UHGV virus genome: UHGV-0073227
DNA from: a virus
DNA length: 14,853 nt
Direction: 5' to 3' (one strand)
The first letter of the stretch is position 1. Every line of letters begins with the position of its first letter. Positions 1-13,415 of the stretch are shown piece by piece. Under the pieces are notes generated by a model, which saw only the letters and a program-made list of their open reading frames with translations, ran no database searches and was not told where the DNA came from. Both the position numbers and the translations under genes were made by a program.

Positions 1-49
1 TTATGTTAACGAAAGGATTGTACAGTAAAGCGCATTTGTTAACGAATCA

Positions 50-733
50 TTAAATGCCGAGTGGGAAAATATCATAGCCTTGTTCTTGCCAACTGGTGAG
101 TTGCTGTTGTTGGGCGGAGGTTCGATTTTCACCGCACCACACCAGCAATGTACGGCCTTCGAACAGTTCAGGGCGTAGTTGATTGAGCGAGTGGGCGAGG
201 ACATCAATGCGCCATCCTTGTTGACTGGCAATCCAGCCCTCCAGCCACAGACGGGTGGTATCGTGAATATTCCAGCCAACCACCAGCGCATCTTTACCCT
301 TTTTTTTACGTGCCGAAGCCAGACAGATGGCGATGTAGTTGATCAGTACGCCGTCGAGGATCGCCAGCAGCGCCTGGAGAGTCGGTTGTTGGCACTGAAG
401 CCGTCGACGCAGAGGAATAAACAAATGCGTGGTGAGCGTCTGGGCGGGGTAATCCTGACCGCGCTCTTTGATCCACGTTCGCAGGCTATGCAGATTGCCG
501 CTTTGCAAGTAAGTCAGTAATGTTTCTTGCTGATCGCGCCAGCCGTTCTGCACATCAACATTTTCATTACTGAGCAGCATTTTAACTTTGCTGACCTGCA
601 CGCCGTTGTCGATCCAGCGTTTGATCTCGCGGATCCGGTCAATATCGGCATCGTTGAACAGCCGATGACCGCCGTCTGTCCGTTGCGGTTTCAGCAATCC
701 GTAACGCCTCTGCCACGCGCGTAACGTGACAGG
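50..733 (-). pseudogene. mlrA: 3' portion of MerR-family regulator MlrA (YehV); 5' end displaced by prophage insertion
   Basis: Translation of ORF 50..697 matches MlrA from the MerR-type motif LLKPQRTDGGHRLFNDADIDRIREIKRWIDNG to the C-terminus (recalled from memory). Upstream in frame the sequence still reads PVTLRAWQRRYG (to about 733), then diverges and hits a stop at 767-769 with no ATG, so the native N-terminal HTH and start codon are missing. Confidence 0.85.
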
Positions 734-771
734 GATTAAGGGTAAACTAACTGATTTTACAAGTTTTTATT
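698..771. other. Prophage-host junction (int-proximal att site) between the mlrA fragment and the integrase stop
   Basis: mlrA homology is lost around 733-740 and the integrase stop codon is at 772-774; the crossover must lie in this interval. The exact core cannot be defined without the other prophage end. Confidence 0.6.
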
Positions 772-2058
772 TTACCCCACTTTCTTATGGGGCATACATG
801 GGACACTTTCAGATAGTCTTTTGTTAAGGAGTTCTATCTGTTCGTGATTGTTGTCTTTCATCCATGCTCCGTAAACATTGAATACCATTTGTGCGTTTGT
901 GTGGCCCATCTGGCTTGCGATAAAACTAGGATTAGCTCCAGCGGCAAGTGACCAGCATGCATAAGTATGCCTGGATTGGTACGATTTTCTGTGTCTCAGA
1001 CCTGCGCGTTTTAAGATACTTGTCCATGACTCCCTGATGGAGTCAACTTTGTAGTGAGGTCCAGACAACTGCTGCTGTTTTATTACCTGAGGGCTAAAAA
1101 CAAAAGTACATTTATGCACAGCAGTTCTCCCATATTCCCTCTGCTTTACCTCTACAGAATGTTGCTTTCCAAGCATGGTCATTTCCGCCTGGCTTTTAAG
1201 AGCATCAATAGCTGGTTGAACCAGATGAATTGTCCTTCCGGTGCCAGCATCGGTTTTTGGTGGAGTGAATTCGCCAAGTTTTGTATAATTTCTACGGATG
1301 GTTATAGTCCTTGCTTTAAGGTCTATATCTTCCCATGCCAGCGATACCAACTCCCCGTGACGAATACCCGTGTATACAGCGAGAATCCACAGGTTTTTTG
1401 TTTGTTGATGACGGCAAGCCTCAATAAAACGAATAAATTCGTCACGGGTGAGAGGATCTGGTTTTACCTTGGACTTTTTTAAGGGAGCCAGACCGTTAAA
1501 TGGGTTTCCTGAGGTATAACCATTATCTGTTGCAAATTGAAACATTCCAGCTATGGTTGTCATATAGTAGTTTACCGTGACCACTGAGCGCCCTTTTATG
1601 GAAGAAGTCTTTCCATTAGAAAGCTTTTGGTAACCGGTCAACAAATCTCTCCTTACGAAAAGTAAATCCTCTTTTGTTATGGATGAAACCAGTTTTTTTT
1701 CACCTAACATTGGTAACATGTTTTTAATTACTGACTGGTAACGGTTAAGTGCATTCGCACAAATCTCAATTTTCTTAAGGTCCAACCATTTTTCCGAAAG
1801 TGCCTTAACGGTTATCTCTCTTTTTCCCAGACCAAAGTGTTTCAGGTTAGGGGAATTAGGGAACTGCGCGGCGTAGTCGAAACTCCCCATTCTGATTGCA
1901 AAACAAACTGAAGTGCGAAGCTCACCAGCGATCTTCCGGTTTTTGGCGGTGTCAGGAACACCGAGGTTTTCTCTGACACGTTTGCCATTATAGTGAAACC
2001 ATATACGGAGTGATCCTCCATGGTTTTCAACGCCTGTCGGGTATGATGCGTTACTCAT
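772..2058 (-). CDS. int: Phage tyrosine integrase (site-specific recombinase)
   Basis: 428-aa ORF with a C-terminal catalytic region typical of tyrosine recombinases (GIRHGELVSLAWEDID ... HRKSYQSRHTYACWSLAAGANPSFIASQMGHTNAQMVFNVYGAW, carrying the R..H..R..Y residues). ATG at 2056-2058 is preceded by GGAGG. It sits next to the att junction. Confidence 0.95.
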   Translation of the reverse strand: MSNASYPTGVENHGGSLRIWFHYNGKRVRENLGVPDTAKNRKIAGELRTSVCFAIRMGSFDYAAQFPNSPNLKHFGLGKREITVKALSEKWLDLKKIEICANALNRYQSVIKNMLPMLGEKKLVSSITKEDLLFVRRDLLTGYQKLSNGKTSSIKGRSVVTVNYYMTTIAGMFQFATDNGYTSGNPFNGLAPLKKSKVKPDPLTRDEFIRFIEACRHQQTKNLWILAVYTGIRHGELVSLAWEDIDLKARTITIRRNYTKLGEFTPPKTDAGTGRTIHLVQPAIDALKSQAEMTMLGKQHSVEVKQREYGRTAVHKCTFVFSPQVIKQQQLSGPHYKVDSIRESWTSILKRAGLRHRKSYQSRHTYACWSLAAGANPSFIASQMGHTNAQMVFNVYGAWMKDNNHEQIELLNKRLSESVPCMPHKKVG

Positions 2059-2091
2059 AAAACCTCCCAGACGTCCAGGAGCATTAACAGG

Positions 2092-2346
2092 TTAACCGGA
2101 ACTTGCATTTTTGGCACCTGGTTGTTTCTGGTTTTCGATCCATCGCATAATTTCTTCGATGTTGTACAGGCATTCACTGTAATGCCCCGGATCGCCTTCT
2201 ACAGCGTAATGGCGGTATTCTTTTCCCTGCATCCATGACTTTCTTCTGGCCCGCTCGATGGTGCCAGGCTTTAGCCCTGTTGATGCAATGAGGACTCTCT
2301 CCGTACACCATTTGCTGGGGGTTATCTGATAGATGATTGTCTGCAT
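2092..2346 (-). CDS. Excisionase-like small DNA-binding protein (putative Xis)
   Basis: 84-aa ORF immediately upstream of int on the same strand, which is the usual xis position. Basic and HTH-like; RBS GAGGT before the ATG at 2346. Functional call is from position and size. Confidence 0.6.
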   Translation of the reverse strand: MQTIIYQITPSKWCTERVLIASTGLKPGTIERARRKSWMQGKEYRHYAVEGDPGHYSECLYNIEEIMRWIENQKQPGAKNASSG

Positions 2347-2389
2347 GCCAACCTCATAAAACTTTCATCCACGGCAGTGGCACCACACT

Positions 2390-2506
2390 TCAAACATTCG
2401 CTTCACATCTTCTGTACAACACGGTGTTGTTTATGCAGCGAACAATTTTTACCGGGTAACCGGCACTGTCGGTATACAGTTGTCCCTGATTAATCAGAGC
2501 GAACAT
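2390..2506 (-). CDS. Candidate 38-aa small protein (MFALINQGQLYTDSAGYPVKIVRCINNTVLYRRCEANV)
   Basis: Internal ATG of the 79-aa track ORF, preceded by a strong AGGAG with 5-nt spacing. It starts after the stop of the upstream 127-aa gene (2538), avoiding the overlap the full 79-aa ORF would need. Confidence 0.3.
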   Translation of the reverse strand: MFALINQGQLYTDSAGYPVKIVRCINNTVLYRRCEANV

Positions 2507-2537
2507 TTTTTCTCCTGCTCTCTGAATAGTGAGAACT

Positions 2538-2921
2538 TCAGAGCCGTATGTTTGTAGCGGGTTCAATGCTGATAATTTCTGCTGAGATAAGCATCCCGGC
2601 AAGCCAGAGTTCCCCGGACAGGTCTTCATCCTGGCATATCAGTTCGCCAATATTAATGGTGGCCATGATATCCGTTTTCCCTGTGCGCTCATCCAGGACT
2701 TCTTCATAAGGCAGCGTTGCGTACAGGCTTTCAATAGCGCAATTGATAACATCCAGTCCGGTCAGATTGCCGCCGACAGTAACTTCGAATGTTTCGCGGT
2801 ATTCCCATAGTCCGAAAGTTAATCGAACGGTTTGTTTTGCCATGCGTCCGCACGACGTCAGATTCGGGTCATAGTTCATTATTTGCGGTTGAGTATTCTG
2901 GTTGTTCATCTGATTTTCCAT
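2538..2921 (-). CDS. Hypothetical protein (~127 aa) downstream of the SPFH gene
   Basis: ORF 2538..2984 in the track; the track's start is a GTG inside the SPFH C-terminus. The first ATGs after the SPFH stop are at 2921 and 2909, just after a CCCGGC-GGTTT-GCCGGG stem-loop (2925-2941). No strong RBS, so the start is uncertain. No recognisable family. Confidence 0.5.
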   Translation of the reverse strand: MENQMNNQNTQPQIMNYDPNLTSCGRMAKQTVRLTFGLWEYRETFEVTVGGNLTGLDVINCAIESLYATLPYEEVLDERTGKTDIMATINIGELICQDEDLSGELWLAGMLISAEIISIEPATNIRL

Positions 2922-2949
2922 TAACCCGGCGGTTTGCCGGGCGTGTAAG

Positions 2950-3777
2950 TTATTTAATCTGGATAAATGGTGTATTGGCACCACTGGTCATGTATTGCGG
3001 CAGTGTACCGTTCCACTTGTTGATGGCTTCCAGCTCCATGACGCCAGGGTTCTGGCGCAGAGCTTCACCGCGTAAACGAATAGCATCGGCCTCGGCCTGG
3101 GCTTTTGTGCGAATCGCATCTGCCTGTCCGGCAGCTTCCGCGCGCAACATGTTAGCTTCCGCTTCGCGCTGTTTTACTTCCTGTTCGCGTTGCAGGGTTT
3201 TCTGGTTCGCCGTGACTTTGGCATTAATGCTGTCGATAACGGTTGGCGGGTACTCCGGCTTACCCACATATGAGAGACTCATTACCTGAATACCTATGGG
3301 CGTCATTTCTGCCTGAATGTCTTTAAGAGCTGCATCCAGTAGTTCAGACTTCCCGCCGTCGATAAATTTGTCAGTGGTCATTTTGCTGGCCAGTCGATTG
3401 AGTGCGTCGGCGATCTTCTGGCGCAGGTCAGTGTCGGTAATGTCATCCACGCCTTTGCGGTAGGTCTGAAACACCGTGGTAACTTTGGATGGATCAACTT
3501 TGTAGGCAACACCGATGTGATAGCCGATGGTTGTGCCGTCACTCATCTGGAAGCTGAACGGCTCATCGTAGGTCTTCATTTGTTTGAAGGTTGGGAAGAT
3601 GTAAACTTCAGTATTCCAGCCAGTCCAGTAGCGACCAACACCGACCACCTCACCGACGCCTTTATCGTCGCCCGGTTTATTTACTTTGATGCCAACATTA
3701 CCGGGTTCAACGCGATCGCAGCCGACAAGGCCAATGATCGGCAGAACAATGGCTAAAGCAAAAATAATTTTTTTCAT
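2950..3777 (-). CDS. SPFH/band-7 (HflK/HflC/QmcA-like) domain lipoprotein
   Basis: 275-aa ORF. The N-terminus MKKIIFALAIVLPIIGLVGC is a signal peptide ending in an LVGC lipobox. The body has SPFH-type motifs (NVGIKVNKPG, GIQVMSLSYVGKPEYPPTVIDSI) followed by the Ala/Glu/Arg-rich coiled tail (QREAEANMLRAEAAGQADAIRTKAQAEADAIRLRGEA) typical of HflC/HflK-like proteins. RBS AAGGA, 6 nt before the ATG at 3775-3777. Confidence 0.85.
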   Translation of the reverse strand: MKKIIFALAIVLPIIGLVGCDRVEPGNVGIKVNKPGDDKGVGEVVGVGRYWTGWNTEVYIFPTFKQMKTYDEPFSFQMSDGTTIGYHIGVAYKVDPSKVTTVFQTYRKGVDDITDTDLRQKIADALNRLASKMTTDKFIDGGKSELLDAALKDIQAEMTPIGIQVMSLSYVGKPEYPPTVIDSINAKVTANQKTLQREQEVKQREAEANMLRAEAAGQADAIRTKAQAEADAIRLRGEALRQNPGVMELEAINKWNGTLPQYMTSGANTPFIQIK

Positions 3778-3962
3778 TTTTTATCCTTAGTGAAAGAAAG
3801 ACCCTTGTAAATGGCATAAATGCAGGGCGGGGTCAGAAACGCCAGTGCAAAGCCAGAAGTAACTGCTATCGTATCCTTCATGGATATAAGGAACGGAACG
3901 AGTAATCCGTAAATGCATGCGATAATTGCCAGTAAAATTACTATTGTGAAATACAGTCTCAT
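3774..3962 (-). CDS. Small two-pass membrane protein, translationally coupled to the SPFH gene
   Basis: 62-aa ORF with two hydrophobic segments (YFTIVILLAIIACIYGLLVPFLIS and AVTSGFALAFLTPPCIYAIY). Its TGA stop overlaps the SPFH ATG (ATGA overlap at 3774-3777). Weak RBS. Confidence 0.55.
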   Translation of the reverse strand: MRLYFTIVILLAIIACIYGLLVPFLISMKDTIAVTSGFALAFLTPPCIYAIYKGLSFTKDKK

Positions 3963-4114
3963 TGGTATGTGGTATCCCGATATTTTTAACTGACAGACAG
4001 CGCAATAAAGAGAATAATGATTTCTGTTATTGTCAGTACTGTAGCAAGGATTAAAAGCAGTTTTACTCTGCTTAATTCACGGTTGTTTTTCATATAAATG
4101 GTTAGTAAAAAACG

Positions 4115-4131
4115 GAAGAATTATATTCTTC
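4115..4131 (-). terminator. Perfect palindrome GAAGAAT-TAT-ATTCTTC, followed on the minus strand by a T-run; weak terminator or operator
   Basis: 7-bp perfect inverted arms with a 3-bp spacer, 16 nt downstream of the 190-aa gene stop. The minus-strand continuation is CGTTTTTTAC. The stem is AT-rich, so a protein-binding operator is equally plausible. Confidence 0.3.
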
Positions 4132-4146
4132 TTAATATTTAATGTG

Positions 4147-4719
4147 TCACTGGCCTTCTGGCATACCATGAGTATTCAGGTCGTTAATCATTTCATCCAG
4201 AAGGAGTTCAAGCCCTTCTCGCCCCATGTCTGAAACAATGAAACCTTTATCTGGGTATGTAATGAGCATTTTCTGATAAAGAAACAGCGCTCTACCCATT
4301 CCTTCTGCCTTGCCGTATTTTTGAATTAAATTCCATTCAATATACTGCTGTAAGGCAAACCGAATGGGGCCGGGATATATCGTCATAACCCCATGCTTCC
4401 CGTTATATATTACGGCGCGATCTGTTGTTCCGTGTTCGTTTGGGATATCAATAGTGCCATTCTTGTTTTCTTCTTCGTTGATGAATGTCGTCACGTACAA
4501 CCAGCGCCACTGGGCTACCTTCATCTCAACAGGGAGTTTACCCAGTAATCCTGCATTGTCGGCTTGTGCGAGGCATTGAAGGATTTGCAAACCTTTCACA
4601 TTAGGATGATCGAATTCACCTGCATCCAGACGGCGGATTGCGTCGTGATAATCAATAGTCATACTGCCAGTTCGTATACCTGTGGCTGTTGCTTCAGCCT
4701 GGAATTCAGCGTATTGCAT
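4147..4719 (-). CDS. Hypothetical protein (190 aa), no recognisable family
   Basis: ORF with an AGGAG RBS 8 nt upstream of the ATG at 4717-4719; the RBS lies inside the end of the upstream 60-aa ORF, whose stop is 5 nt before this ATG (tight coupling). The local sequence looks AT-richer than the flanking phage core. Confidence 0.8.
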   Translation of the reverse strand: MQYAEFQAEATATGIRTGSMTIDYHDAIRRLDAGEFDHPNVKGLQILQCLAQADNAGLLGKLPVEMKVAQWRWLYVTTFINEEENKNGTIDIPNEHGTTDRAVIYNGKHGVMTIYPGPIRFALQQYIEWNLIQKYGKAEGMGRALFLYQKMLITYPDKGFIVSDMGREGLELLLDEMINDLNTHGMPEGQ

Positions 4720-4724
4720 GATAT

Positions 4725-4907
4725 TTACTCCTCATCTTCATCTGCTGGTGCAATAACGTCATATCCTGCCTTTTCTGCAATAAACAGGAATGTTGAAAGA
4801 CTTCCTACAAGTTCATCGTCATGAACATGACGAATTAATATTACTTTCCCGTTTTTGATGGTCAGCAATACTCTGGTTTGCTCGTGTTCTGCTGTTTTCT
4901 GATGCAT
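4725..4907 (-). CDS. Hypothetical small acidic-tailed protein (60 aa), coupled to the 190-aa gene
   Basis: ORF starting at the ATG 4905-4907 with a GGGAG RBS. Ends in the acidic tail PADEDEE. Immediately followed by the 190-aa gene. Confidence 0.65.
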   Translation of the reverse strand: MHQKTAEHEQTRVLLTIKNGKVILIRHVHDDELVGSLSTFLFIAEKAGYDVIAPADEDEE

Positions 4908-4909
4908 TA

Positions 4910-5023
4910 TTATCTCCCATATGCTTTACGCAGAAACAAGCAGGCAATATGCATGTAATTTTTCCCGTGCTGTGCAATAAGGCAGGCTGTTTTGTGTGAT
5001 GCCTTATGTTTTATAAAGGTCAT
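4910..5023 (-). CDS. Candidate 37-aa basic leader peptide (MTFIKHKASHKTACLIAQHGKNYMHIACLFLRKAYGR)
   Basis: Not in the ORF track (too short). ATG at 5021-5023 with a strong GGAGG RBS 7 nt upstream; its TAA stop (4910-4912) lies 2 nt before the ATG of the 60-aa gene. Confidence 0.3.
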   Translation of the reverse strand: MTFIKHKASHKTACLIAQHGKNYMHIACLFLRKAYGR

Positions 5024-5104
5024 ATAAAACCTCCTGTGGATTAAGGGTGTGATAATCCCCGGCGATTAAGCCGTAATATATTATCCGGAGATGACTTGTT
5101 CTAT

Positions 5105-5305
5105 TTAACTGGTTAGTTCTTTTTCAGCAGCTGCTTCAGCATAGCAACGTGCAAATTCAAGAACTTCATCACCTGTTCTTTTTATTGCGTCGTTGTCTGA
5201 CATTTGTAATACAACAACTGCGCATAATAAATTATGGATATTGTTTGCAAAGGAATCCGGTGCCAGGCATAAGCCTTCATACTTATCATGGATATTGCCA
5301 GTCAT
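5105..5305 (-). CDS. Hypothetical small protein (66 aa)
   Basis: Internal ATG of the 80-aa track ORF with an AAGGAG RBS; the RBS sits immediately before the stop codon of the upstream tandem-HTH gene (5311-5313), with 5 nt from that stop to this ATG. Confidence 0.6.
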   Translation of the reverse strand: MTGNIHDKYEGLCLAPDSFANNIHNLLCAVVVLQMSDNDAIKRTGDEVLEFARCYAEAAAEKELTS

Positions 5306-5310
5306 TGTTG

Positions 5311-5982
5311 TTACTCCTTTGCTTCTGATTTGCCTGTTAACAACCACATCAGGTCACAATTAAGAGCACTGGCCAGTGGTACTATCTGATCAGCAGGAAC
5401 TTCACAGATGCCGCATTCCCAGTCGTTTATGGGGTCGCTATAGGTATTAATCATGCGGGCAAGATCAGCTTCCGTTAAGCCCAGTTTTTTACGTGCGCTT
5501 TTGATGCGTGCGCCAATACTTTCCACGTAGACTTCAGGCGCATTTACGCGAATAACAGACGCGCTATCTTTTTCATCCAGCAAAGAAAGCGGATCGCACC
5601 CAATGACGTTTGCCAGGGGGATAAGCATGCTGATGGTCGGTTCGAACTCTCCGCTCTCCCATTGCAGGATGATCTCTTCATCGAGATCAAGCAGTTTGGC
5701 AAGTTCGGTGGTCGTCAAGCCGCAGGCTTCACGTTGGGCACGGATTTTTCCAAAAAAGTGACCATGCGAAACCATAGCTTTTGCCTCACATAGTTTTTCT
5801 GCAAAAATTGATGCAGTTTCTTCTGTTTTTTGCAGGGAACGCATCAGGCATCTGATTGCATTATAAACCCTCTCACTTTCTGCTCCGTTTTCTGACATGT
5901 AGGAATAGATCATTCCAAGCAGCGAGCCGCTTTCTTGTATTTGTGCTGCAATTTCATCCATCACCTTAACTGCATGCTTCAT
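5311..5982 (-). CDS. Tandem helix-turn-helix (two XRE-type HTH domains) DNA-binding protein with an N-terminal helical domain
   Basis: ORF 5311..6018; the track's first codon is TTG, while the ATG at 5980-5982 has a perfect AGGAGG RBS. Two HTH_XRE-like segments (GKIRAQREACGLTTTELAKLLDLDEEIILQWESGE and GARIKSARKKLGLTEADLARMINTYSDPINDWECG). First gene downstream of the PL-like promoter. Confidence 0.8.
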   Translation of the reverse strand: MKHAVKVMDEIAAQIQESGSLLGMIYSYMSENGAESERVYNAIRCLMRSLQKTEETASIFAEKLCEAKAMVSHGHFFGKIRAQREACGLTTTELAKLLDLDEEIILQWESGEFEPTISMLIPLANVIGCDPLSLLDEKDSASVIRVNAPEVYVESIGARIKSARKKLGLTEADLARMINTYSDPINDWECGICEVPADQIVPLASALNCDLMWLLTGKSEAKE

Positions 5983-6007
5983 ATGAGCCTCCTGTTGTTT
6001 TAATTTT

Positions 6008-6047
6008 ACAATAGCCAAAGCGTTTGGTTATGTCAATCGCTATAGCT
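6008..6047 (-). promoter_or_regulatory. PL-like leftward promoter with overlapping operator
   Basis: On the minus strand: -35 TTGACA (plus 6031-6036), 17-bp spacer, -10 TATTGT (plus 6008-6013), about 20 nt upstream of the RBS and ATG at 5982. The 13-mer TCAATCGCTATAG (6033-6045) overlaps the -35 and recurs in the cI-cro intergenic region. A palindrome CCAAA-GCG-TTTGG (6015-6027) lies in the spacer. Confidence 0.5.
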
Positions 6048-6124
6048 ATGCATTTTGGGCAGCAAAGAACAGATTATGAGAGAAATGAGACGATACGTAG
6101 GGAGTTGAGATACAGGAAAGTAGA

Positions 6125-6145
6125 GCAGCTGCGCAATACAGCTGC
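6125..6145 (-). terminator. Stem-loop GCAGCTG-CGCAATA-CAGCTGC downstream of the cI stop; candidate cI terminator
   Basis: 7-bp perfect stem with a 7-nt loop, 14 nt past the cI stop. The minus-strand continuation UCUACUUUCCU is only moderately U-rich. Confidence 0.35.
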
Positions 6146-6158
6146 CGGTGATGTTGAC

Positions 6159-6863
6159 TTATCCGACCCTGTTATACTGGATTGACTGATGAATGAGAAC
6201 TTTCCCCATTATGAATAGATGTTCTTCAGCTGATTCACTTATAAACCATTCCTTGTAGGCCGGATTGTCTGATATAACAGCAAGTTGCATCCCTTGCATT
6301 TGCAGGCGTTTGATATGGAAGGTGTGCCCAAAAATAAAAATATAGATACCGTCAGTTTCAAAATTTCTGACGGATACGTCGACAAACACCTGATCTCCTG
6401 CACACAGAGTAGGAGCCATGCTGTCGCCATCAACTGTTATCATCTTTATGATATTTGCTGGCCTGCTACAGAACAGACGTCTTGCGGCGTCATGTGAAAA
6501 TTCTATAGCATGGACCGTTTCTGCAAAATCTGAAACAAGGAATGTTCCTGGTCCCGCGCTGGCAGCGATATCCAGGACTTCCACACGAAAAATATCCTTA
6601 TCATTTTCCAGCGGGGAATATGATTCCTGTGGTGTCGGATTGCAGGATGTGCTTTCTTCTGGGGTCATAGGACCAACACCGTACGATAGCCACTCGGGGC
6701 GCACGTTCAGGGTATTGGCTATCTCCACAACTTTCCTGGAGCCTGTGGCACCATTAACCAGTTTATTTACGCTCGATTGAGCCATGCCAACCTCTCTGGC
6801 CAGTTTTCCCTGCGAGTATCCGCGGATAGTCATAGCTAACTGTAGCCTGTCTGAAAAGCTCAT
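6159..6863 (-). CDS. Phage repressor, cI-like (N-terminal HTH_XRE plus C-terminal S24/LexA-type autopeptidase)
   Basis: ATG at 6861-6863 with an AAGGAGG RBS. N-terminal HTH (YSQGKLAREVGMAQSSVNKLVNG). C-terminal S24 motifs: an Ala-Gly site (AASAGPG), the Ser nucleophile in VDGDSMAPT, and Lys in HIKRL. Divergent from the Cro-like gene. Confidence 0.9.
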   Translation of the reverse strand: MSFSDRLQLAMTIRGYSQGKLAREVGMAQSSVNKLVNGATGSRKVVEIANTLNVRPEWLSYGVGPMTPEESTSCNPTPQESYSPLENDKDIFRVEVLDIAASAGPGTFLVSDFAETVHAIEFSHDAARRLFCSRPANIIKMITVDGDSMAPTLCAGDQVFVDVSVRNFETDGIYIFIFGHTFHIKRLQMQGMQLAVISDNPAYKEWFISESAEEHLFIMGKVLIHQSIQYNRVG

Positions 6864-6986
6864 AAGTCCTCCTTTTTCTGCCCTTTTAGTGTATCGCCTT
6901 AGCGATATATACACAAACCGCTTTTCCGTACATTGCAATCGCTTTAATCAATCGCTATAGTGAATGAAATCAGGTTGGAGGTCGAT
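6864..6986. promoter_or_regulatory. Immunity-switch intergenic region (OR-like operators with divergent PRM/PR promoters)
   Basis: Perfect palindrome TATCGC-CTTA-GCGATA (6892-6907). Two direct CAATCGCT repeats (6936-6943 and 6949-6956). Candidate PR: -35 TTGCAA (6933-6938), 16-bp spacer, -10 TATAGT (6955-6960), both overlapped by the repeats. The 13-mer TCAATCGCTATAG (6948-6960) is shared with the PL region. Confidence 0.6.
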
Positions 6987-7250
6987 ATGAAAAATGAAGG
7001 TATAGCCAAGGCTGTAGATATTGCGGGAAGCCAGATTGCTCTGGCTAGGCGTTGTGGTCGCGCGCAGTCAACAATTTGCGACTGGCTGAATGGGAAGAAA
7101 AAAATTTCTCCTGAATTTGTTCCGTCTCTGGTTAAGGCGGTCGATGGGAAAGTCCAGGCGTATGAATTTCGTCCTGATCTACCGGAGCTTTTCCCACACC
7201 CAAGTTTAGCGCACACAGAAGATGGAGTGTGCGAAGGAGATAAACAGTGA
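6987..7250 (+). CDS. Cro-like / YdaS-family small HTH regulator
   Basis: ATG at 6987 with a GGAGG RBS 5 nt upstream. The HTH segment (GSQIALARRCGRAQSTICDWLNG) resembles the YdaS/Cro family. Divergent from cI; its stop overlaps the next gene's GTG. Confidence 0.8.
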   Translation: MKNEGIAKAVDIAGSQIALARRCGRAQSTICDWLNGKKKISPEFVPSLVKAVDGKVQAYEFRPDLPELFPHPSLAHTEDGVCEGDKQ

Positions 7251-7954
7251 ATACAACAATTTTTACCGATAAAGCATCCATGACCAGTATTGAGATAGCT
7301 GAGCTGGTGGGAAGCAGACCAGATAGTGTTAAGAGAACTATTGAAACACTGGCTAAAAAGGGAATCATCCAATTTCCACAGTCTGTGGAAATTGAGAATA
7401 AACAATCACTTGGCCCTCGCCGATTTTCTAGCGCGTATGTATTCGAAGGTGAACGAGGCAAACGCGACAGCATCATTGTTGTCGCACAGCTTTGCCCTGA
7501 ATTCACCGCCTGCCTGGTAGATCGCTGGCGTGAACTGGAAAAACAAATCCGCAAACCAATGAGCCAGATCGAAATGGTTGCTGCAATGGCGCTTGAAGCT
7601 GTTCGCCAACAAAGACGTCTTGAGCAGGTGGAAGAGAAAGTCACCTACGTTACTGAAACCGTCGAGCGAATCAAAAGAGGCACCATACGCGATGGTTATG
7701 CAGGCTACCGTCAGCTGGTAGCGAAAACGGGTATGTCAGATGCGAAATGCCGCAATCTGGTGAACGCATATCAGATCCCTACCGACCCCCATGAGTTCAT
7801 GAGGCCGGATGGATTGTTGTCTCGTCGCGCAATTGTTGCTGTGGAACCGTTTATGGCTGCTTTTTATCGGGTTATGGAGGAAGCAGAACCGCGAGGGACT
7901 TGCTGGTATTACCCGAAAATGGGGGTATTTCAGGTTATTGGTTGGCAGAAATAA
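7247..7954 (+). CDS. Rha-family phage regulatory protein / antirepressor-like
   Basis: GTG start overlapping the cro stop (GTGA), preceded by a GAAGGAGA RBS. The N-terminal motif TSIEIAELVGSRPDSVKRTIETLAKKG is consistent with the Phage_pRha family, recalled from memory. Confidence 0.7.
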   Translation: MNTTIFTDKASMTSIEIAELVGSRPDSVKRTIETLAKKGIIQFPQSVEIENKQSLGPRRFSSAYVFEGERGKRDSIIVVAQLCPEFTACLVDRWRELEKQIRKPMSQIEMVAAMALEAVRQQRRLEQVEEKVTYVTETVERIKRGTIRDGYAGYRQLVAKTGMSDAKCRNLVNAYQIPTDPHEFMRPDGLLSRRAIVAVEPFMAAFYRVMEEAEPRGTCWYYPKMGVFQVIGWQK

Positions 7955-7958
7955 GAAA

Positions 7959-7979
7959 GGCCGGCAGAGAAAACCGGCC
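7959..7979 (+). terminator. Stem-loop GGCCGG-(9 nt)-CCGGCC immediately after the Rha-like gene stop
   Basis: 6-bp GC stem 5 nt after the TAA, followed by AGTCGGGTTTATCG (a weak T tract). Possible attenuator or weak terminator. Confidence 0.3.
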
Positions 7980-8006
7980 AGTCGGGTTTATCGTCGGAGA
8001 TATTAC

Positions 8007-8831
8007 GTGAAAAACAATATCAAAGTTTTCGATTTTAAATCAAGCACTGGTGAATTGTTGTCATCAGTTCGTAGTGTGGTCATTGATTCAACACCATGGT
8101 TTTTTGCCGTGGATATATGTAACGCGCTGGGGCTGACAAATACTGCTATCTCCCTTCAGTCCATCGATGATGAAGATAAAACCGAATATAAGGATTACTT
8201 AGGTTCGGGACGTAAGCCTTTGCTGGTCAATGAATCCGGGCTCTATGCGCTGATTATCAAAAGTCGAAAAAAACAGGCAAGACGTTTTAAACGGTGGATT
8301 ACATCGGAGGTAATTCCGTCAATTCGTAAAACGGGGAATTACAGTCTTACCACAATGACATCCCTACCAGATTTTAGCGATCCGGCTGCTGCTGCCCGTG
8401 CCTGGGCGGATGAATATGAGGCTAAAAACAGAGCAATTAGTTACGTTCATCGTCAGGCCCAATACATCGAACATCTGGAAAATTTATTCCAGCCTGGCAT
8501 GACACCGGTTCAGTTCTGCAAGCAACTTAATGGAGTAAATGTTCAGCGTATCACAGCATTTCTGGAGGCTCACAACTGGCTTTATGACGAGCGTCCTGAA
8601 TCGCGAAGCCCCGCATGGCGTGTAAAGGCATATGCCCGAGATCTGTATCTGACCGAACGTCACCACTATATCGATTCAGGTTATGAAGAAGGGTTTTATT
8701 CGTATACACCAGTTCTTCTCCAGAAAGGGGCGGTCTGGATTTATCGCCAGTATCTTAGAGGTGCATTACCCATGAAGAGAAACTGGAATGGCGAATTCAC
8801 CCACGATAAAGAACTGGCGGGTGCTGCATGA
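8007..8831 (+). CDS. Phage antirepressor with an N-terminal Bro-N domain and a C-terminal KilA-C/ANT-like region
   Basis: GTG at 8007 is the first in-frame start after the upstream stop, with a GGAGA RBS 6 nt upstream. Bro-N-like motif: VVIDSTPWFFAVDICNALGLTNTAISLQSIDDEDK ... ESGLYALIIKSRKKQARRFKRWITSEVIPSIRKTG. Confidence 0.8.
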   Translation: MKNNIKVFDFKSSTGELLSSVRSVVIDSTPWFFAVDICNALGLTNTAISLQSIDDEDKTEYKDYLGSGRKPLLVNESGLYALIIKSRKKQARRFKRWITSEVIPSIRKTGNYSLTTMTSLPDFSDPAAAARAWADEYEAKNRAISYVHRQAQYIEHLENLFQPGMTPVQFCKQLNGVNVQRITAFLEAHNWLYDERPESRSPAWRVKAYARDLYLTERHHYIDSGYEEGFYSYTPVLLQKGAVWIYRQYLRGALPMKRNWNGEFTHDKELAGAA

Positions 8832-9124
8832 TTGTTCTCCAAAATATTGATTCCTCAATTTCGGGACGTTACACTGTTCTGGCACCTTATAAAGCGGGTG
8901 CCGGGGGTCGCAGCCCGGAATTGCATACGGCGATATACGACGCGCCAGCGTCTTTTTTATCGTCCGCGCTCACGCACGCCAGAATTATGGTGGGCTGGGC
9001 AGGGGAGCCGAAAGGCTCGCCGGTTTCCGTATGCGCCGGTACTGCGAACCCTGTTCAGTCTGCCACCAGTGAGTTTCGCAGCTCCGGTGGTGGAAGTTAT
9101 CCATTGCATACGGAGGCTGCCATC

Positions 9125-9676
9125 ATGGCTACGATCCCAACCCTCACTCAACCTGAAATTGCCATCGTTGATGGTCAGGCTGTTACTTCATCCCTGGCTG
9201 TTGCCAACTTCTTCTCCAAACGTCATGACGATGTACTGAAAAAGATCCGCACGCTTGAATGTTCCGCATCATTCACTGCCCGCAATTTTTCGGTGAGTGA
9301 TTACACCGATTGCACAGGCCGCAAACTACATTGCTATCAAATAACCCGCGACGGCTTTGCGTTTCTTGCTATGGGTTTCACGGGTAAACGTGCTGCCCAG
9401 TTCAAAGAGGCATACATAAATGCCTTTAACCAGATGGAGAAGAGTTTATCAGGTGCCGATGCGTCTGATATGTCAGCTGTCGCACGAAACGCCAGAGGCG
9501 TATACCTGCATTTGCGTGAAATCCATCAAATCTGGACAAGCCAGCTTTATCCAATGCTTAAGGCTGTTGAATCTCCGCTGGCCAGCAAACTGTACGACCG
9601 TGTAGGTGATGCTGTTTTTGGTGCTGCACTTGTTGATTCCAGGCTGAATGGTTCTGACAAGGAGGTGCGTCCATGA
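9125..9676 (+). CDS. Second Rha-family phage regulatory protein / antirepressor-like
   Basis: ATG at 9125 with a GGAGG RBS (9112-9116). Rha-like N-terminus: AIVDGQAVTSSLAVANFFSKRHDDVLKKIRTL. The open frame also extends upstream to an ATG at 8828 that overlaps the Bro-N stop, so a 282-aa N-extended form is not excluded. Confidence 0.75.
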   Translation: MATIPTLTQPEIAIVDGQAVTSSLAVANFFSKRHDDVLKKIRTLECSASFTARNFSVSDYTDCTGRKLHCYQITRDGFAFLAMGFTGKRAAQFKEAYINAFNQMEKSLSGADASDMSAVARNARGVYLHLREIHQIWTSQLYPMLKAVESPLASKLYDRVGDAVFGAALVDSRLNGSDKEVRP

Positions 9677-9897
9677 TCCGCCACATCGTTAATTTCCTGT
9701 ATCACCGATACAACCATTGCCCCCGTGTGGGGCAGTGGTTCACCACCAGCAACGGACACGTTCTGCGGGTTTGCCTGGTCAATACAGAAAGCCAGAAGGT
9801 TGTCTGCCAGGTTCAGGGACGTACTCATACCCTGAGTTATCCGCTGGTGGCGTTTCAGTCCGGAAAAATGTTTAAGCGTCTGGGAGGTGCCGTATGA
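9673..9897 (+). CDS. Hypothetical small protein (74 aa)
   Basis: Strong AAGGAGG RBS 7 nt upstream; its ATG overlaps the Rha stop (ATGA) and its stop overlaps the ATG of the replication initiator. Cys/His-containing; no family recognised. Confidence 0.6.
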   Translation: MIRHIVNFLYHRYNHCPRVGQWFTTSNGHVLRVCLVNTESQKVVCQVQGRTHTLSYPLVAFQSGKMFKRLGGAV

Positions 9898-10805
9898 GTA
9901 GCAAAATCCTAGGTAATGTCTGGGATGCATGTGCAGCATATGGCATCAAAGGTGCAAAACTGATGATTATGGCGCGCTTGGCGGATTATTCGAATGATGA
10001 CGGGGTGTGCTACCCAGGTGTTGAAACCATATGCCGACAGCTTGGGTTGGGAGAAAGTACAGTCAGAACGGCAATCTCCGAACTGGAGGCTGATGGCTGG
10101 CTGACGCGTCAGTCACGCCGCAAAGGTAACCGTAATACGTCCAATCTTTATCATCTGAATGCTGATCGGCTTGAGCTGCTTGCCAGAACAGAGCGGGATA
10201 AGGTTGCAGAACTGAAACAGCAGCGCAGACTTTCAGGATTACGTGACCCTTCAGATTCTGAACCTTCAAAATCTGAACCGTCAGAATCTGTATGTTCAGG
10301 TGTGTTTGACCCTTCAGATTCTGGCAAAAATACGCGTTTGACCCTTCAGAATCTGACCCCAGATCCACAAGGTTTAAAACATGAACCACCAGTAAATTCA
10401 AAACATGAACCGCAAGATATTGGCGCATCCGCTGACGCGTCTGCACCAGCGCGTTCTGCCAGACAGGAATATTCACCGGAATTTGAACAGGCCTGGCAGG
10501 AATATCCCAAACGTGCTGGTGGTAATTCCAAGTCAGCAGCCTTCAAAGCCTGGAAAGCCCGAATCAGGGAAGGTGTGACACCCGAAACCATGCTCAACGG
10601 TGTGAAACGCTATGCCGCCTGGGTGCGTGTCTCTGGAAATACCGGTACCCAGTTCGTGAAGCAGGCGTCGACGTTCTTTGGACCCGATCGTCATTTCGAG
10701 GAATCCTGGCAACAGCCAGCAGCCCCCGGAGGTGGGCGGGGCAAAAGCCTCCCGATCTCGGGATTCAGTGAACAGGACTACGGCTCAACGAACTTCAACT
10801 GGTGA
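9894..10805 (+). CDS. Phage replication initiator (lambda O-like replisome organizer) with N-terminal winged-helix/HTH
   Basis: N-terminal HTH (ICRQLGLGESTVRTAISELEADGWLTRQ); a central repetitive low-complexity segment encoded by the iteron array; C-terminal conserved region (EFEQAWQEYPKRAGGNSKSAAFKAWKARIREGVTPE). Sits directly before the DnaC-like and DnaB-like genes. Confidence 0.8.
   Translation: MSSKILGNVWDACAAYGIKGAKLMIMARLADYSNDDGVCYPGVETICRQLGLGESTVRTAISELEADGWLTRQSRRKGNRNTSNLYHLNADRLELLARTERDKVAELKQQRRLSGLRDPSDSEPSKSEPSESVCSGVFDPSDSGKNTRLTLQNLTPDPQGLKHEPPVNSKHEPQDIGASADASAPARSARQEYSPEFEQAWQEYPKRAGGNSKSAAFKAWKARIREGVTPETMLNGVKRYAAWVRVSGNTGTQFVKQASTFFGPDRHFEESWQQPAAPGGGRGKSLPISGFSEQDYGSTNFNW
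10244..10355. repeat. Iteron array (candidate origin of replication) embedded in the initiator gene
   Basis: TGACCCTTCAGATTCTG at 10244-10260 and 10307-10323, the variant TGACCCTTCAGAATCTG at 10339-10355, and degenerate copies (CCTTCAAAATCTG, CCGTCAGAATCTG) between them. Followed by a twice-repeated AAACATGAACC (10377-10410). Confidence 0.7.
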
Positions 10806-10824
10806 TTTTGTGGGGAGGGTGAAA

Positions 10825-11715
10825 ATGACTAATTTCCTGAACAAACAACACATGCAACACGACAAAGCGCAGTTACTTAACCGCAAGGCAGACCTGGAAG
10901 AGGAACTGGCATTTGTCCGTGGCGGAAAGCGTCCGTGGCGCTGTGAGCATTGGGTGCAAAGCACTGAGACGGTGTCCTGCGGGAAACACGGAAAATACAC
11001 GCGCTATGTGCTGACGGGCCCGGATGTAAGGGGGAAAGCTGTCAAACGGGTGTCCGGTTGCCTGTCCTGCCTCAGTGAGGAGCTGGACTGCGTGTATGAC
11101 GAATTACGCGCTCTGAAGGTTCGTGAATTACTCGATCAGGCCGGTATTGCCCGCCGGTTCCAGGACTGTGAGTTTGAGAATTATCAGGCGGTGAATACTG
11201 ACGCACAGAAAAACCTTGAAGCCTGTCAGCGCTATGCCGCTTCTTGGAAGAAATGTCTCGCTGCAGGCACCAGCATGGTCATGATTGGCAATTGTGGTAC
11301 CGGTAAAAATCACCTGGCTGTATCAATGGCAAAAAATATTATTCGCCACCACCAGGCAACCATAGAAATCACGGATGTAATGCGGCTTACCCGTGCGGTG
11401 AAAAATACCTGGCGCCACAACTCTGAGCGCACTGACGATGAAGTGATTAATCATTTTGCATCGCTGGATCTGCTTATCATCGATGAGGTTGGTGTGCAGT
11501 TCGGTACGCCTGCGGAGATAACCATCCTGCAGGAAATCATAAATGCGCGTTACGAAAGCGTTTTACCGACAATTTTGATCAGCAACCTGACGTTTGAACA
11601 GCTTAAGGAATCCATTGGTGAACGGATTGTGGATCGCGTTACTGATGGTGGGCGTAACTGCCTGGTGTTTGGTTGGGAAAGCTACCGTGCGCATATCAGA
11701 GGTGTGGCAGCATGA
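10825..11715 (+). CDS. DnaC-like helicase loader (IstB-type AAA+ ATPase) with an N-terminal Cys/His cluster
   Basis: ATG at 10825 with a GGGGAGGG RBS. Walker A GNCGTGKNHLA and Walker B LLIIDEVG. N-terminal putative zinc-binding residues (RCEHW, SCGKHG, GCLSCL). Confidence 0.85.
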   Translation: MTNFLNKQHMQHDKAQLLNRKADLEEELAFVRGGKRPWRCEHWVQSTETVSCGKHGKYTRYVLTGPDVRGKAVKRVSGCLSCLSEELDCVYDELRALKVRELLDQAGIARRFQDCEFENYQAVNTDAQKNLEACQRYAASWKKCLAAGTSMVMIGNCGTGKNHLAVSMAKNIIRHHQATIEITDVMRLTRAVKNTWRHNSERTDDEVINHFASLDLLIIDEVGVQFGTPAEITILQEIINARYESVLPTILISNLTFEQLKESIGERIVDRVTDGGRNCLVFGWESYRAHIRGVAA

Positions 11716-13112
11716 CAAACCCGACAAATCCGGCGTGGCGTAATTATGACCTGGAAGGAGCTGTCATCGGTGCGTTTTTTCTGCGTGGGGCTGATCCGGA
11801 AGTGATGGATATTCTGGCCACATTGTCGGCGGACGTTTTTTCTGCACGACAGTACCGGGATATTTACGCGGGAATTTGCAGACAGGCCCGTGTATCCGGC
11901 GTCATTGACCCCGTACTGCTGTGCAATGAGATGCCGGAACTTGCCCCGGTGATTACCGACACCGGACGCAAAACCTGGGTGAAGTCTTCACTGGAGCACT
12001 ATGTCGCAGCGTTGCGGCGTAATGCCGCACTGCGCGATGCAGAAAAAACACTGACTGAAGCATTACAGAATTTACGTGATGCGTATACCTGTGAAGCAGC
12101 CGAGGATGCCCTGAAGGATGCGCAGAACATGATGGCCTCACTGTCGACCGGAAAGGGCGTCATTCAGCCGGTTCACATTGATGATGTCCTTCCGGAAGTG
12201 GTCGACCGTGTTGAATGCCGCAATCAGGGACTGGAGAAATCCAGAGCGCTGATGACCGGTATTGATGAACTGGACGCAAAAACGGGCGGTATGGAGCCAG
12301 GCGACCTGGTATTTATTGCGGCTCGTCCTTCGATGGGGAAAACCGAACTTGCGCTGGATATCATCGACAAGGTGACTGAGCAGGGGCATGGCGTGCTTCT
12401 GTTCACCATGGAGATGGCGAACATTCAGATTGGTGAACGTATGGTGTCTGCTGCCGGGGGAATGCCGGTATCCCGTCTTAAGTCTGTTGCCCGTTTTGAA
12501 GACGAAGACTGGGCGCGTTTCTCACAGGGCGTGGGACGAATAACGGGGCGTAATATCTGGATGGTGGACCAGGCAAACCTGACCATTGATGAGATATGTG
12601 CAACCACGAGGCACCACCGGATGAAACACCCGGAAACGGCGCTGGTGGTGGTCGATTACCTCGGTCTGATTAAAACCCGCAGCACGGGGCGTCACGACCT
12701 TGCTGTGGGGGAAATCTCAAAGGGACTTAAAAGCCTGGCAAAATCCGGCGGTTTTCCGCTGATTGCTCTGAGCCAGCTCTCCCGTGGCGTGGAATCCAGA
12801 CCCAATAAACGCCCCATGAACTCGGACCTGAAAAACTCAGGGGAAATAGAGGCGGATGCAGACATCATTCTGATGCTTTACAGGGATGAGGTGTACAACC
12901 CGGAGACACAGGCGAGAGGCATAGCTGAAATCAACATCACGAAACAGCGTAATGGCACGCTGGGTACCATTTACCGGCGTTTTCATAACGGGCATTTTCT
13001 GCCTGTGGACCAGGAGAGTGCCCGGGTTCTTTCCACTCCCATGACGCCGGGCAATCCGCGCAGATACAGCAATAACCGCATGTCGGGTAGTAAAACGGAG
13101 CGTTTATTTTGA
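11712..13112 (+). CDS. DnaB-family replicative helicase
   Basis: ATG overlaps the DnaC-like stop (ATGA). Walker A (ARPSMGKTELAL), Walker B-like (LVVVDYLGLI), and the C-terminal RecA-like region of DnaB-type helicases. 466 aa. Confidence 0.9.
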   Translation: MTNPTNPAWRNYDLEGAVIGAFFLRGADPEVMDILATLSADVFSARQYRDIYAGICRQARVSGVIDPVLLCNEMPELAPVITDTGRKTWVKSSLEHYVAALRRNAALRDAEKTLTEALQNLRDAYTCEAAEDALKDAQNMMASLSTGKGVIQPVHIDDVLPEVVDRVECRNQGLEKSRALMTGIDELDAKTGGMEPGDLVFIAARPSMGKTELALDIIDKVTEQGHGVLLFTMEMANIQIGERMVSAAGGMPVSRLKSVARFEDEDWARFSQGVGRITGRNIWMVDQANLTIDEICATTRHHRMKHPETALVVVDYLGLIKTRSTGRHDLAVGEISKGLKSLAKSGGFPLIALSQLSRGVESRPNKRPMNSDLKNSGEIEADADIILMLYRDEVYNPETQARGIAEINITKQRNGTLGTIYRRFHNGHFLPVDQESARVLSTPMTPGNPRRYSNNRMSGSKTERLF

Positions 13113-13363
13113 ACAACAGAACAACCACTGTTTCACCGGAACAACTTCGTCGGCAGGCGCAGGAGATGCTTCGTTGTGCTGAGATGGAAAAAACGAGCGT
13201 GGCAAAAGATACGCTCCGCAAGCAGCTTACTCCGGCGCTTCGTGATCTGCTGCAGGCAAAACACCGCACACAAAAGGCGGTGGATGAGCTGGTGGATTGC
13301 GTGGCGGAACTGGAAGGCCAGGTAAGCCAGTTTGAAACGCTGGTGAAGGAGTTTACTGCGTGA
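13109..13363 (+). CDS. Hypothetical small helical protein (84 aa)
   Basis: ORF beginning at a TTG that overlaps the DnaB stop, with AAACGGAG upstream. Charged, coiled-coil-like composition. Start codon uncertain. Confidence 0.45.
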   Translation: MNNRTTTVSPEQLRRQAQEMLRCAEMEKTSVAKDTLRKQLTPALRDLLQAKHRTQKAVDELVDCVAELEGQVSQFETLVKEFTA

Positions 13364-13415
13364 TGGCTGAATTTTTTTCTCCTGCGTTCATGCAATACCG
13401 TTCGCTGAGGTGACC

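Follow-up and report, generated by a model that had tools for sequence, protein, structure and literature searches.

What fills the early-left arm of a lambdoid prophage from which the usual early-left functions are missing? The question is raised by the UHGV virus genome UHGV-0073227, a stretch of 14,853 nucleotides (nt) that was analysed over its whole length and is called the window below. Its early-left arm lies between the excisionase gene xis and the gene for a cI-like repressor and covers positions 2390 to 5982, bounded by the stop codon of the gene that follows xis (2390) and by the ATG start codon of the one adjoining cI (5982). A first-pass annotation, made from the letters alone, reported that no Red/RecET/Erf-type recombinase, Gam, Kil, Ssb, N or CIII is encoded there and proposed that the arm had been replaced by accessory cassettes. 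The explanation favored here, which is quite probable as a whole, is that the arm is the intact PL operon of a phiP27-type lambdoid prophage, with a 'G-IV' early region, behind int and xis genes specific for mlrA. The arm would thus be the operon native to the phiP27 lineage, built from a regulator core and exchangeable cassettes. The prophage has no Rec module there and is enriched in Chi sites, and it would be expected to depend on RecBCD.

The absence of the canonical genes was upheld by hidden Markov model (HMM), lambda-protein and fold searches. Pfam, PHROGs and NCBIfam gave no match of any arm protein to Exo/YqaJ, Bet/RecT, RecE, Erf, Gam, Kil, SSB, N or CIII, and comparison of the lambda early-left proteins (NC_001416) with the arm proteins by phmmer and blastp gave no meaningful similarity. 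A match of the arm protein p60 to lambda orf60a (E of about 0.01 over 23 amino acids, in a database of 28 sequences) was judged not to be meaningful. Fold searches with models of p190 and the DUF5406 protein, the two largest proteins of unassigned function, found no canonical recombination function. Nor did sensitive searches turn up diverged but otherwise ordinary homologs of exo, bet, gam, kil, cIII or N. The Rec-module genes of an O157:H7 prophage integrated at mlrA (L020), used as a positive control, were readily annotated where present. A Red, RecET or Erf module with Gam or Abc2 would appear as contiguous genes for an exonuclease, an annealing protein and a RecBCD inhibitor in the middle of the PL operon, and no such set is found in the arm. 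In addition, no candidate recombinase gene is universal, as p190 and the gene for an SPFH protein are missing or pseudogenised in sister arms; Zheng et al. applied the same argument to their class of phages without a Rec module (PMC12315714).

Signs of an N protein are also lacking. The arginine-rich N-terminal motif is absent from every open reading frame (ORF) of the arm that was scanned, and no boxA-like sequence was found near PL or PR. The first gene after PL, about 20 nt past the predicted start site, encodes a protein of 223 amino acids with two helix-turn-helix (HTH) domains rather than N. A search of the 1-8000 portion of the window against Rfam at E<=1 was empty, with boxB hairpins and HK022-type put RNAs not specifically modelled.

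The source of the arm was traced by alignment with prophages that occupy the same site. From position 1 to 2412, which includes mlrA, int and xis, the window is 98.5% identical to the O157:H7 mlrA prophage L020, and there the similarity ends abruptly; from 2408 on, the window matches the phiP27-like prophage L003 at 93%. The recombination junction at 2408-2412 is also found in long-tailed phages that carry Shiga toxin 2a (Stx2a) genes. The last 66 nt in common with the O157:H7 mlrA prophages (2347-2412, minus strand) are the 3' end of their 135-nt ORF adjoining xis, and the DUF4222 gene of the window is truncated because the junction falls inside it. An mlrA prophage with the 98.5%-identical mlrA-int-xis segment is present in hundreds of O157:H7-type genomes. 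Its early region encodes lambda exonuclease, Bet, Gam, Kil, CIII, a DUF2528 protein at the position of lambda ea10, and SieB, and beyond the arm it encodes a LexA-type repressor, CII, O, P, Ren and NinB. The canonical exo-bet-gam-kil-cIII-sieB arm of these prophages, whose int-xis module is the closest to that of the window, is absent from the window.

Deposited phages carry the arm nearly unchanged. It is 96-98% identical at the nucleotide level to complete long-tailed Stx2a- and Stx2d-converting phages (LC567818-LC567842) over window positions 2347-5735, with the match ending near 5736-5739, and strain 89-3156, within the same range of identity, matches along 100% of the arm. The part from DUF4222 to p60 is 87% identical to genes L03-L07 of the Stx2e phage phiP27 (AJ298298). 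At least 80% of the arm is present in 60 of 5426 complete E. coli genomes, and parts of it are present in about 1000. The complete Stx2a phages bearing the arm are 45-46 kb in size with full late regions. Given that the same arm is found in these phages and in phiP27, the missing Rec module is a lineage-wide design. Divergence from the relative with a Rec module runs on through immunity and replication, and so reflects module exchange and not deletion. Judged from these alignments, the unit that differs extends beyond the arm to immunity and replication and amounts to the complete early region of a different phage lineage. This agrees with the report that the early regions of long-tailed Stx2 phages, of the 'G-IV' type, are organised unlike those of short-tailed ones (Nakamura et al. 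2024, PMC11333237). The first-pass proposal of a replaced arm thus survives in part: a swap beside xis did occur and the cassettes are mosaic and exchangeable, but the arm was not refilled within an otherwise constant early region. The exchange may have brought int and xis to a backbone of the phiP27 type, or it may have run in the opposite direction.

The control region suggests how the operon would be expressed. A PL-like sigma-70 promoter (TTGACA-17-TATTGT, 10 of 12 matches in a promoter scan) is predicted on the minus strand at 6036-6008, in an element spanning 6008-6045. It follows cI at a distance of 176 nt, and the start codon of the first leftward gene, HTH223, comes about 20 nt after it. 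The 13-nt operator sequence CTATAGCGATTGA has two exact copies in the window: one overlaps the -35 element of the PL-like promoter, and the second, at 6948-6960, overlaps the -10 element of a PR-like promoter in the interval between cI and cro. Because the operator is common to the two promoters, the arm is most likely a repressor-controlled early-lytic operon, transcribed leftward from the predicted promoter. No convincing intrinsic terminator was found on the minus strand from the promoter to xis, where the candidates are weak, and the same is true of promoters or internal terminators that would mark the cassettes as independent morons. An AT-rich hairpin with a T-run after p190, at about 4105-4130, was too weak to be called a terminator. 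The only decent terminator-like hairpin and T-run on the minus strand is at 2064-2081, between xis and the start codon of int. Given the lack of a nut-like boxA and of a convincing terminator before xis, N-type antitermination is probably not needed. In the proposed mechanism, the operon would be read leftward from the promoter under control of the cI operator, with a two-HTH regulator as first gene in place of N, and the distal cassettes would be expressed as early-lytic genes.

The second line of evidence is the distribution of Chi sites (GCTGGTGG). The window contains 10 copies, one of them in mlrA, against 0.44 expected, and none of 200 shuffled sequences reached 10. Seven on the top strand (7303, 9843, 10515, 12641, 13288, 13641 and 13912) and two on the bottom strand (9743 and 14041) lie in the rightward early region (7303-14048), and there are none between int and cI. 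Chi is the commonest top-strand octamer in the prophage part of the window, in LC567842 and in phiP27. With expectations from a trinucleotide model, the top and bottom strands carry 7 and 2 copies in the prophage part of the window (14.1 kb; 0.56 and 0.30 expected), 16 and 5 in the complete relative LC567842 (2.51 and 0.83 expected) and 12 and 5 in phiP27 (2.05 and 0.71 expected). Lambda has none on either strand (1.81 and 0.89 expected), and the O157 counterpart with a Rec module at the same mlrA site has none on either strand over a comparable 14.6 kb.

Such genomes have been described as a class. About half of lambdoid genomes lack recombinases, and Chi is over-represented in them with an observed-to-expected ratio of about 3 (Bobay et al. 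2013, PMC3784561). More recently, a Rec module was found to be missing from 22% of 314 lambdoid phages, most of which have at least 8 Chi sites in the active orientation; members typically have at least 8 active and at most 6 inactive copies per genome (Zheng et al. 2025, PMC12315714). The type phage, LLS, lacks N and grows better with RecBCD, and its most abundant octamer is Chi (PMC12315714). In the operon studied here, no gene for an annealing protein, exonuclease, SSB or RecBCD inhibitor can be recognised, and the lineage is high in Chi when counted over whole genomes, the count being taken from the complete relatives as the window covers part of the prophage. The lineage therefore fits the published class of 'no Rec module, high Chi', for which the design and its compensation by Chi are already known. 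By virtue of this membership, packageable concatemers would most likely be made by host RecBCD and RecA, drawn in by the Chi sites of the rightward early region.

Several points weigh against this explanation. The window is only 14.8 kb long, such that the whole-genome Chi count is reached only through relatives, and the window by itself shows no significant strand bias of Chi (p=0.18). A cryptic prophage may also gain Chi passively, as Zheng et al. (2025, PMC12315714) warn, and this prophage is possibly non-viable. The literature searched yielded no test of any phiP27-lineage member in recBCD mutants. The DUF4222 gene is truncated, p190 and the DUF5406 protein have no assigned function, and a recombination or anti-RecBCD protein of a wholly new type could escape both HMM and fold searches.

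The genes themselves support a division of the operon into a core and cassettes. All ten credible genes of the arm, of which eight are annotated and two are not, are on the minus strand, and their reading frames are intact except for the DUF4222 remnant. All eight annotated genes belong to PHROG families and four contain Pfam domains (DUF4222, DUF5406, Band_7 and two copies of HTH_3), such that the first-pass description of every ORF as unrecognised or atypical was too strong. Its impression of AT-richness was correct: the GC content of the arm is 44.8% against 50.9% for the right arm, with 38-40% in p60, p66, mem62 and sORF37, 33% in sORF35 and 30% in the gap at 3963-4146. Eight plus-strand ORFs of the arm, among which an analog of sieB was sought, gave no match in PHROGs. 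A 12-nt inverted repeat (4405-4416 and 5070-5081) and other long-range repeats were judged to be due to chance.

The core consists of HTH223, p66, sORF37 and a p60-type protein. All sister arms keep a repressor-proximal HTH regulator, p66, sORF37 and a p60-type protein, and this lineage-conserved core is probably regulatory. HTH223 (5311-5982) occupies the position of lambda N. Its product has an N-terminal domain of no assigned family and two XRE-type HTH domains (Pfam HTH_3 at residues 80-131 and 157-220), and it matches phrog_4739, phrog_4836 ('CII-like regulator') and, below the cut-off, a DicA-like NCBIfam family. The next gene encodes p66 (5105-5305), a helical protein of 66 amino acids that belongs to phrog_4587 (E=6e-36) and matches the N-terminal part of phrog_4836. 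Over 44 amino acids, p66 is 48-50% identical to the N-terminus of the HTH gene in three relatives (L002, L004 and L005), of whose N-terminal domain it is a paralog, so that the domain exists both free-standing and fused, suggesting that p66 may be a partner or a decoy of the HTH regulator. No similarity of p66 to the N-terminus of HTH223 from the window itself was found.

Between p66 and p60 lies the unannotated sORF37 (4910-5023, MTFIKHKASHKTACLIAQHGKNYMHIACLFLRKAYGR), which encodes a basic protein of 37 amino acids behind an AGGAGG Shine-Dalgarno (SD) sequence and ends 2 nt ahead of the start codon of p60 (TAA-TA-ATG). It is present in six of six relatives at 81-100% identity, with mainly synonymous substitutions. 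By tblastn, 35 phage records contain it; the matches in Fels-1, Cronobacter ENT39118, Aeromonas AsXd-1 and other phages are at 50-62%. In both divergent records that were inspected (Fels-1 and ENT39118), it lies in the repressor-proximal early region. The protein has no match in Pfam or PHROGs, and the spacing of its cysteines and histidines (C14, H19, H25 and C28; C-x4-H-x5-H-x2-C) hints at possible metal binding. The acidic, 60-amino-acid p60 (4725-4907) belongs to phrog_340 (E=6e-22) and resembles the C-terminal part of antirepressors, with weak matches to the antirepressor families phrog_4792 and phrog_2379. Its homologs in phiP27 and in arms with alternative cassettes are 44-51% identical. 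A noncoding block between the p66 stop and sORF37 (5045-5080, minus strand, tattacggcttaatcgccggggattatcac) contains a small CGGC/GCCG hairpin and is kept even in phiP27, where the genes on either side share only 51-56% identity. The block may act as an RNA or as a site bound by a protein.

Distal to the core are exchangeable accessory units: p190 with sORF35, mem62 with the SPFH lipoprotein, and DUF5406 with DUF4222. The gene for p190 (4147-4719; 190 amino acids, phrog_1515) is accessory, as it is not universal in the lineage, and it has so far been seen only in early-left operons of prophages without recombinases. The family has 125 representatives, with a Pfam domain in none of 54 members, and the confident model of p190 has no neighbor among PDB and viral folds. 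The unannotated sORF35 (3986-4093, MKNNRELSRVKLLLILATVLTITEIIILFIALSVS) lies in the gap of 30% GC, after the weak hairpin and T-run at about 4105-4130, and would encode a peptide of 35 amino acids with a single transmembrane (TM) helix. It is kept in L001, L002 and phiP27 at 82-100% and has no match in Pfam or PHROGs; its coding status is uncertain because the SD sequence is weak. In sister arms, the place of p190 and sORF35 can be taken by a cassette of four genes, one of them for a ParE-like protein.

The second cassette encodes a membrane protein and a lipoprotein. The product of mem62 (3774-3962), with 62 amino acids and two predicted TM helices, belongs to the 'membrane protein' family phrog_1130 (E=7e-23) and has no match in Pfam, NfeD included. 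Its stop codon overlaps the start of the SPFH gene (ATGA), which suggests translational coupling. The two genes travel together in L009, and P88 has an ORF for 67 amino acids at that position. The SPFH/Band-7 lipoprotein (2950-3777) has 275 amino acids and matches Pfam Band_7 (E=4e-30) and the 'lipoprotein' family phrog_200 (E=3e-114). It belongs to the SPFH superfamily (PF01145, 105.6 bits against a cut-off of 23.6), and it falls short of the equivalog level for HflK/HflC (TIGR01932, 24.9 against 134.4 bits; TIGR01933, 22.5 against 159.4 bits); the match to HflK in the PDB (E=1e-3) is confined to the SPFH core. The protein has a lipobox (L17-V18-G19-C20) followed by Asp at position +2 and an Ala/Glu/Gln-rich tail that resembles a coiled coil. 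By the Lol-avoidance rule, Asp at +2 keeps a lipoprotein at the inner membrane, such that the SPFH lipoprotein is predicted to be anchored there and to face the periplasm. It thus has in common with the HflK/HflC-FtsH cage the SPFH domain and the predicted periplasmic side of the inner membrane, but it would be lipid-anchored, whereas HflKC is TM-anchored. As in NfeD-stomatin operons, a small membrane protein appears translationally coupled to it, although mem62 is without an NfeD domain. A prophage HflK/C-like protein, possibly a homolog of the SPFH lipoprotein, has been reported as a virulence factor in Pasteurella.

The SPFH gene varies among sister arms: some have it intact, in some it has an internal deletion, and in others Ea22/DUF551-type genes stand in its place. 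In two prophages at yecE (L003 and L004, 3341-3671 in each), only residues 1-53 and 215-275 remain and the gene is annotated as frameshifted; the mem62 counterpart beside it is intact, with 81% identity. The last cassette adjoins xis in sister arms as well. The DUF5406 protein (2538-2909) has 123 amino acids and an alpha/beta fold, and the DUF4222 remnant (2390-2506) has 38 amino acids, lacks its C-terminus and matches positions 2-31 of the 53 in the profile (PF13973, E=4.5e-9). A mechanically called ORF of 79 amino acids (2390-2629) is an in-frame upstream extension of this remnant that overlaps DUF5406. The remnant is annotated in relatives by RefSeq as an incomplete pseudogene, and full versions with 80 amino acids are present in L003 and L020.

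The first-pass annotation saw the arm as the likeliest site of undescribed exclusion or defense functions, for which no positive evidence was found. That the distal cassettes (the SPFH protein with the two-TM protein, p190 with sORF35, and the ParE-like protein of the sister arm) form a hotspot for exclusion or anti-phage genes could be overlaid on the operon explanation, and it is rather doubtful. Exchange by cassette among otherwise collinear arms would fit such a role, as would the low GC content of the cassettes, the envelope location predicted from the lipobox and TM helices, and the ParE-like toxin gene in the same slot of a sister arm. The SPFH gene is also mobile, both between genera and between elements of lambda-like, P2-like and P1-like type; copies with 74-95% protein identity were found in Enterobacterales, in the early operon of the P2-like P88, in P1-like plasmids and in Erwinia and Klebsiella phages. 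However, no known defense system was detected in the arm. Seven arm proteins have no match in PADLOC-DB 2.0, and HTH223 and cI match only the generic HTH parts of the RmrA, capH and control-protein models. The literature searched links neither the SPFH family, DUF5406 nor DUF4222 to defense, and nothing direct was found in it on the function of the phage SPFH, DUF5406 or DUF4222 proteins. Moreover, convincing promoters or terminators specific to a cassette are absent, and the genes belong to a repressor-controlled early-lytic operon both here and in P88; therefore the cassettes are probably silent in the lysogen.

It is very unlikely that the arm is functionally canonical, with a diverged recombinase, RecBCD inhibitor, Kil, CIII or N hidden among its unassigned ORFs. 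Sizes leave room for it, given that p190 and the DUF5406 protein, both of unassigned function, fall in the range of annealing proteins and Gam, and that sORF37, sORF35 and mem62 fall in the range of CIII and Kil. Nevertheless, even lenient thresholds gave no such match in Pfam, PHROGs or NCBIfam and no similarity to lambda proteins, p190 is missing from sister arms and so is not a core function, and phages with a RecBCD inhibitor show the opposite of Chi enrichment. The least probable account is decay, in which the Rec module of a defective prophage was deleted in situ and the arm left behind is junk: it would accommodate the DUF4222 gene cut at the junction, the internal SPFH deletions of some relatives and the two AT-rich gaps, but it is opposed by the otherwise intact ORFs, the mainly synonymous substitutions in sORF37, the intact promoter-operator arrangement, the same arm in complete Stx2a phages and the sequenced phiP27, and a divergence from the Rec+ relative that extends through immunity and replication.

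It is possible, though less than an even chance, that at least one of the orphan genes of the arm (p190, the SPFH and two-TM pair, or sORF37) has an undescribed early-lytic function. Should this be so, such a gene might block superinfecting DNA at the inner membrane, replace CIII in FtsH-directed control of lysogeny, or assist RecBCD at Chi. The analysis thus provides a shortlist of conserved early-operon genes with no assigned function: p190, the SPFH-membrane pair, sORF37 and DUF5406.

The remainder of the window has the early architecture of a lambdoid phage, with int and xis, a leftward operon, divergent cI and cro, and rightward replication genes. The window begins inside mlrA (50-697, minus strand), which is followed by a tyrosine integrase gene (772-2058) and xis, which encodes a DUF1233 excisionase (2092-2346). 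The right boundary of the arm is the LexA/S24-type cI-like repressor gene (6159-6863, minus strand; Pfam HTH_3 and Peptidase_S24; phrog_4, E=2e-56), and a cro-like gene is divergent from it. The rightward operon after cro encodes two Rha proteins, BRO-N, an HTH protein, a DnaC-like ATPase, a DnaB-like helicase and a DUF968 protein. The antirepressor-type Rha, BRO-N and second Rha genes (7247-9676, plus strand) come directly after cro, at the position of lambda cII, and no cII homolog was seen in this rightward early operon. Collinear relatives have Q, RusA and DUF968 located downstream. With IntR of the Rac prophage (L019), whose arm has RecET, KilR and SieB, the integrase shares 43% identity, and the pair is a further case of one integrase family associated with arms that either have or lack a Rec module.

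The finding is real but ordinary in kind, since the class is published and phage genomes already deposited contain almost the same arm. It is of interest mainly for the contrast between two prophages that share the mlrA site and 98.5% identical int-xis and that follow opposite strategies, Red and Gam with no Chi sites in one and no Rec module with Chi as top octamer in the other. This contrast illustrates, within Shiga-toxin phage lineages, the published dichotomy of 'manipulate or supersede the host', and may bear on the differing induction behavior of long-tailed Stx2 phages.

Compared to known systems, the operon resembles the PL operons of lambda and of the O157:H7 mlrA prophage in its position from xis to cI and in its leftward transcription from a repressor-controlled promoter, and a DUF4222 gene adjoins xis both here and in the latter. 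It differs from the lambda type in that exo, bet, gam, kil, cIII, ea10/ssb, sieB, ral and N are all absent, the first gene of the operon encodes a two-HTH regulator, and there are 9 Chi sites where the lambda-type counterpart has 0. The closest systems are the Stx2a/Stx2d phages LC567818-LC567842 and phiP27 (genes L03-L10), which have the same genes in the same order. The attachment site is mlrA here but yecE or ompW in the group of long-tailed Stx2 phages and phiP27, and the cI/HTH223 allele differs from that of many of the LC5678xx phages. The phiP27 regulator has one HTH domain where that of the window has two, and the tail of phiP27 is of the myovirus type. LLS and other lambdoid phages lacking both Rec and inhibitor genes share the lambdoid early architecture without recombination genes or N, and in them too no octamer is more frequent than Chi, which favors the top strand and clusters to the right of the immunity region. 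The gene content of their arms is unrelated, however, as LLS and ST64B carry yfbR-yfdQ-yfdP, and replication here is by DnaC-like and DnaB-like proteins.

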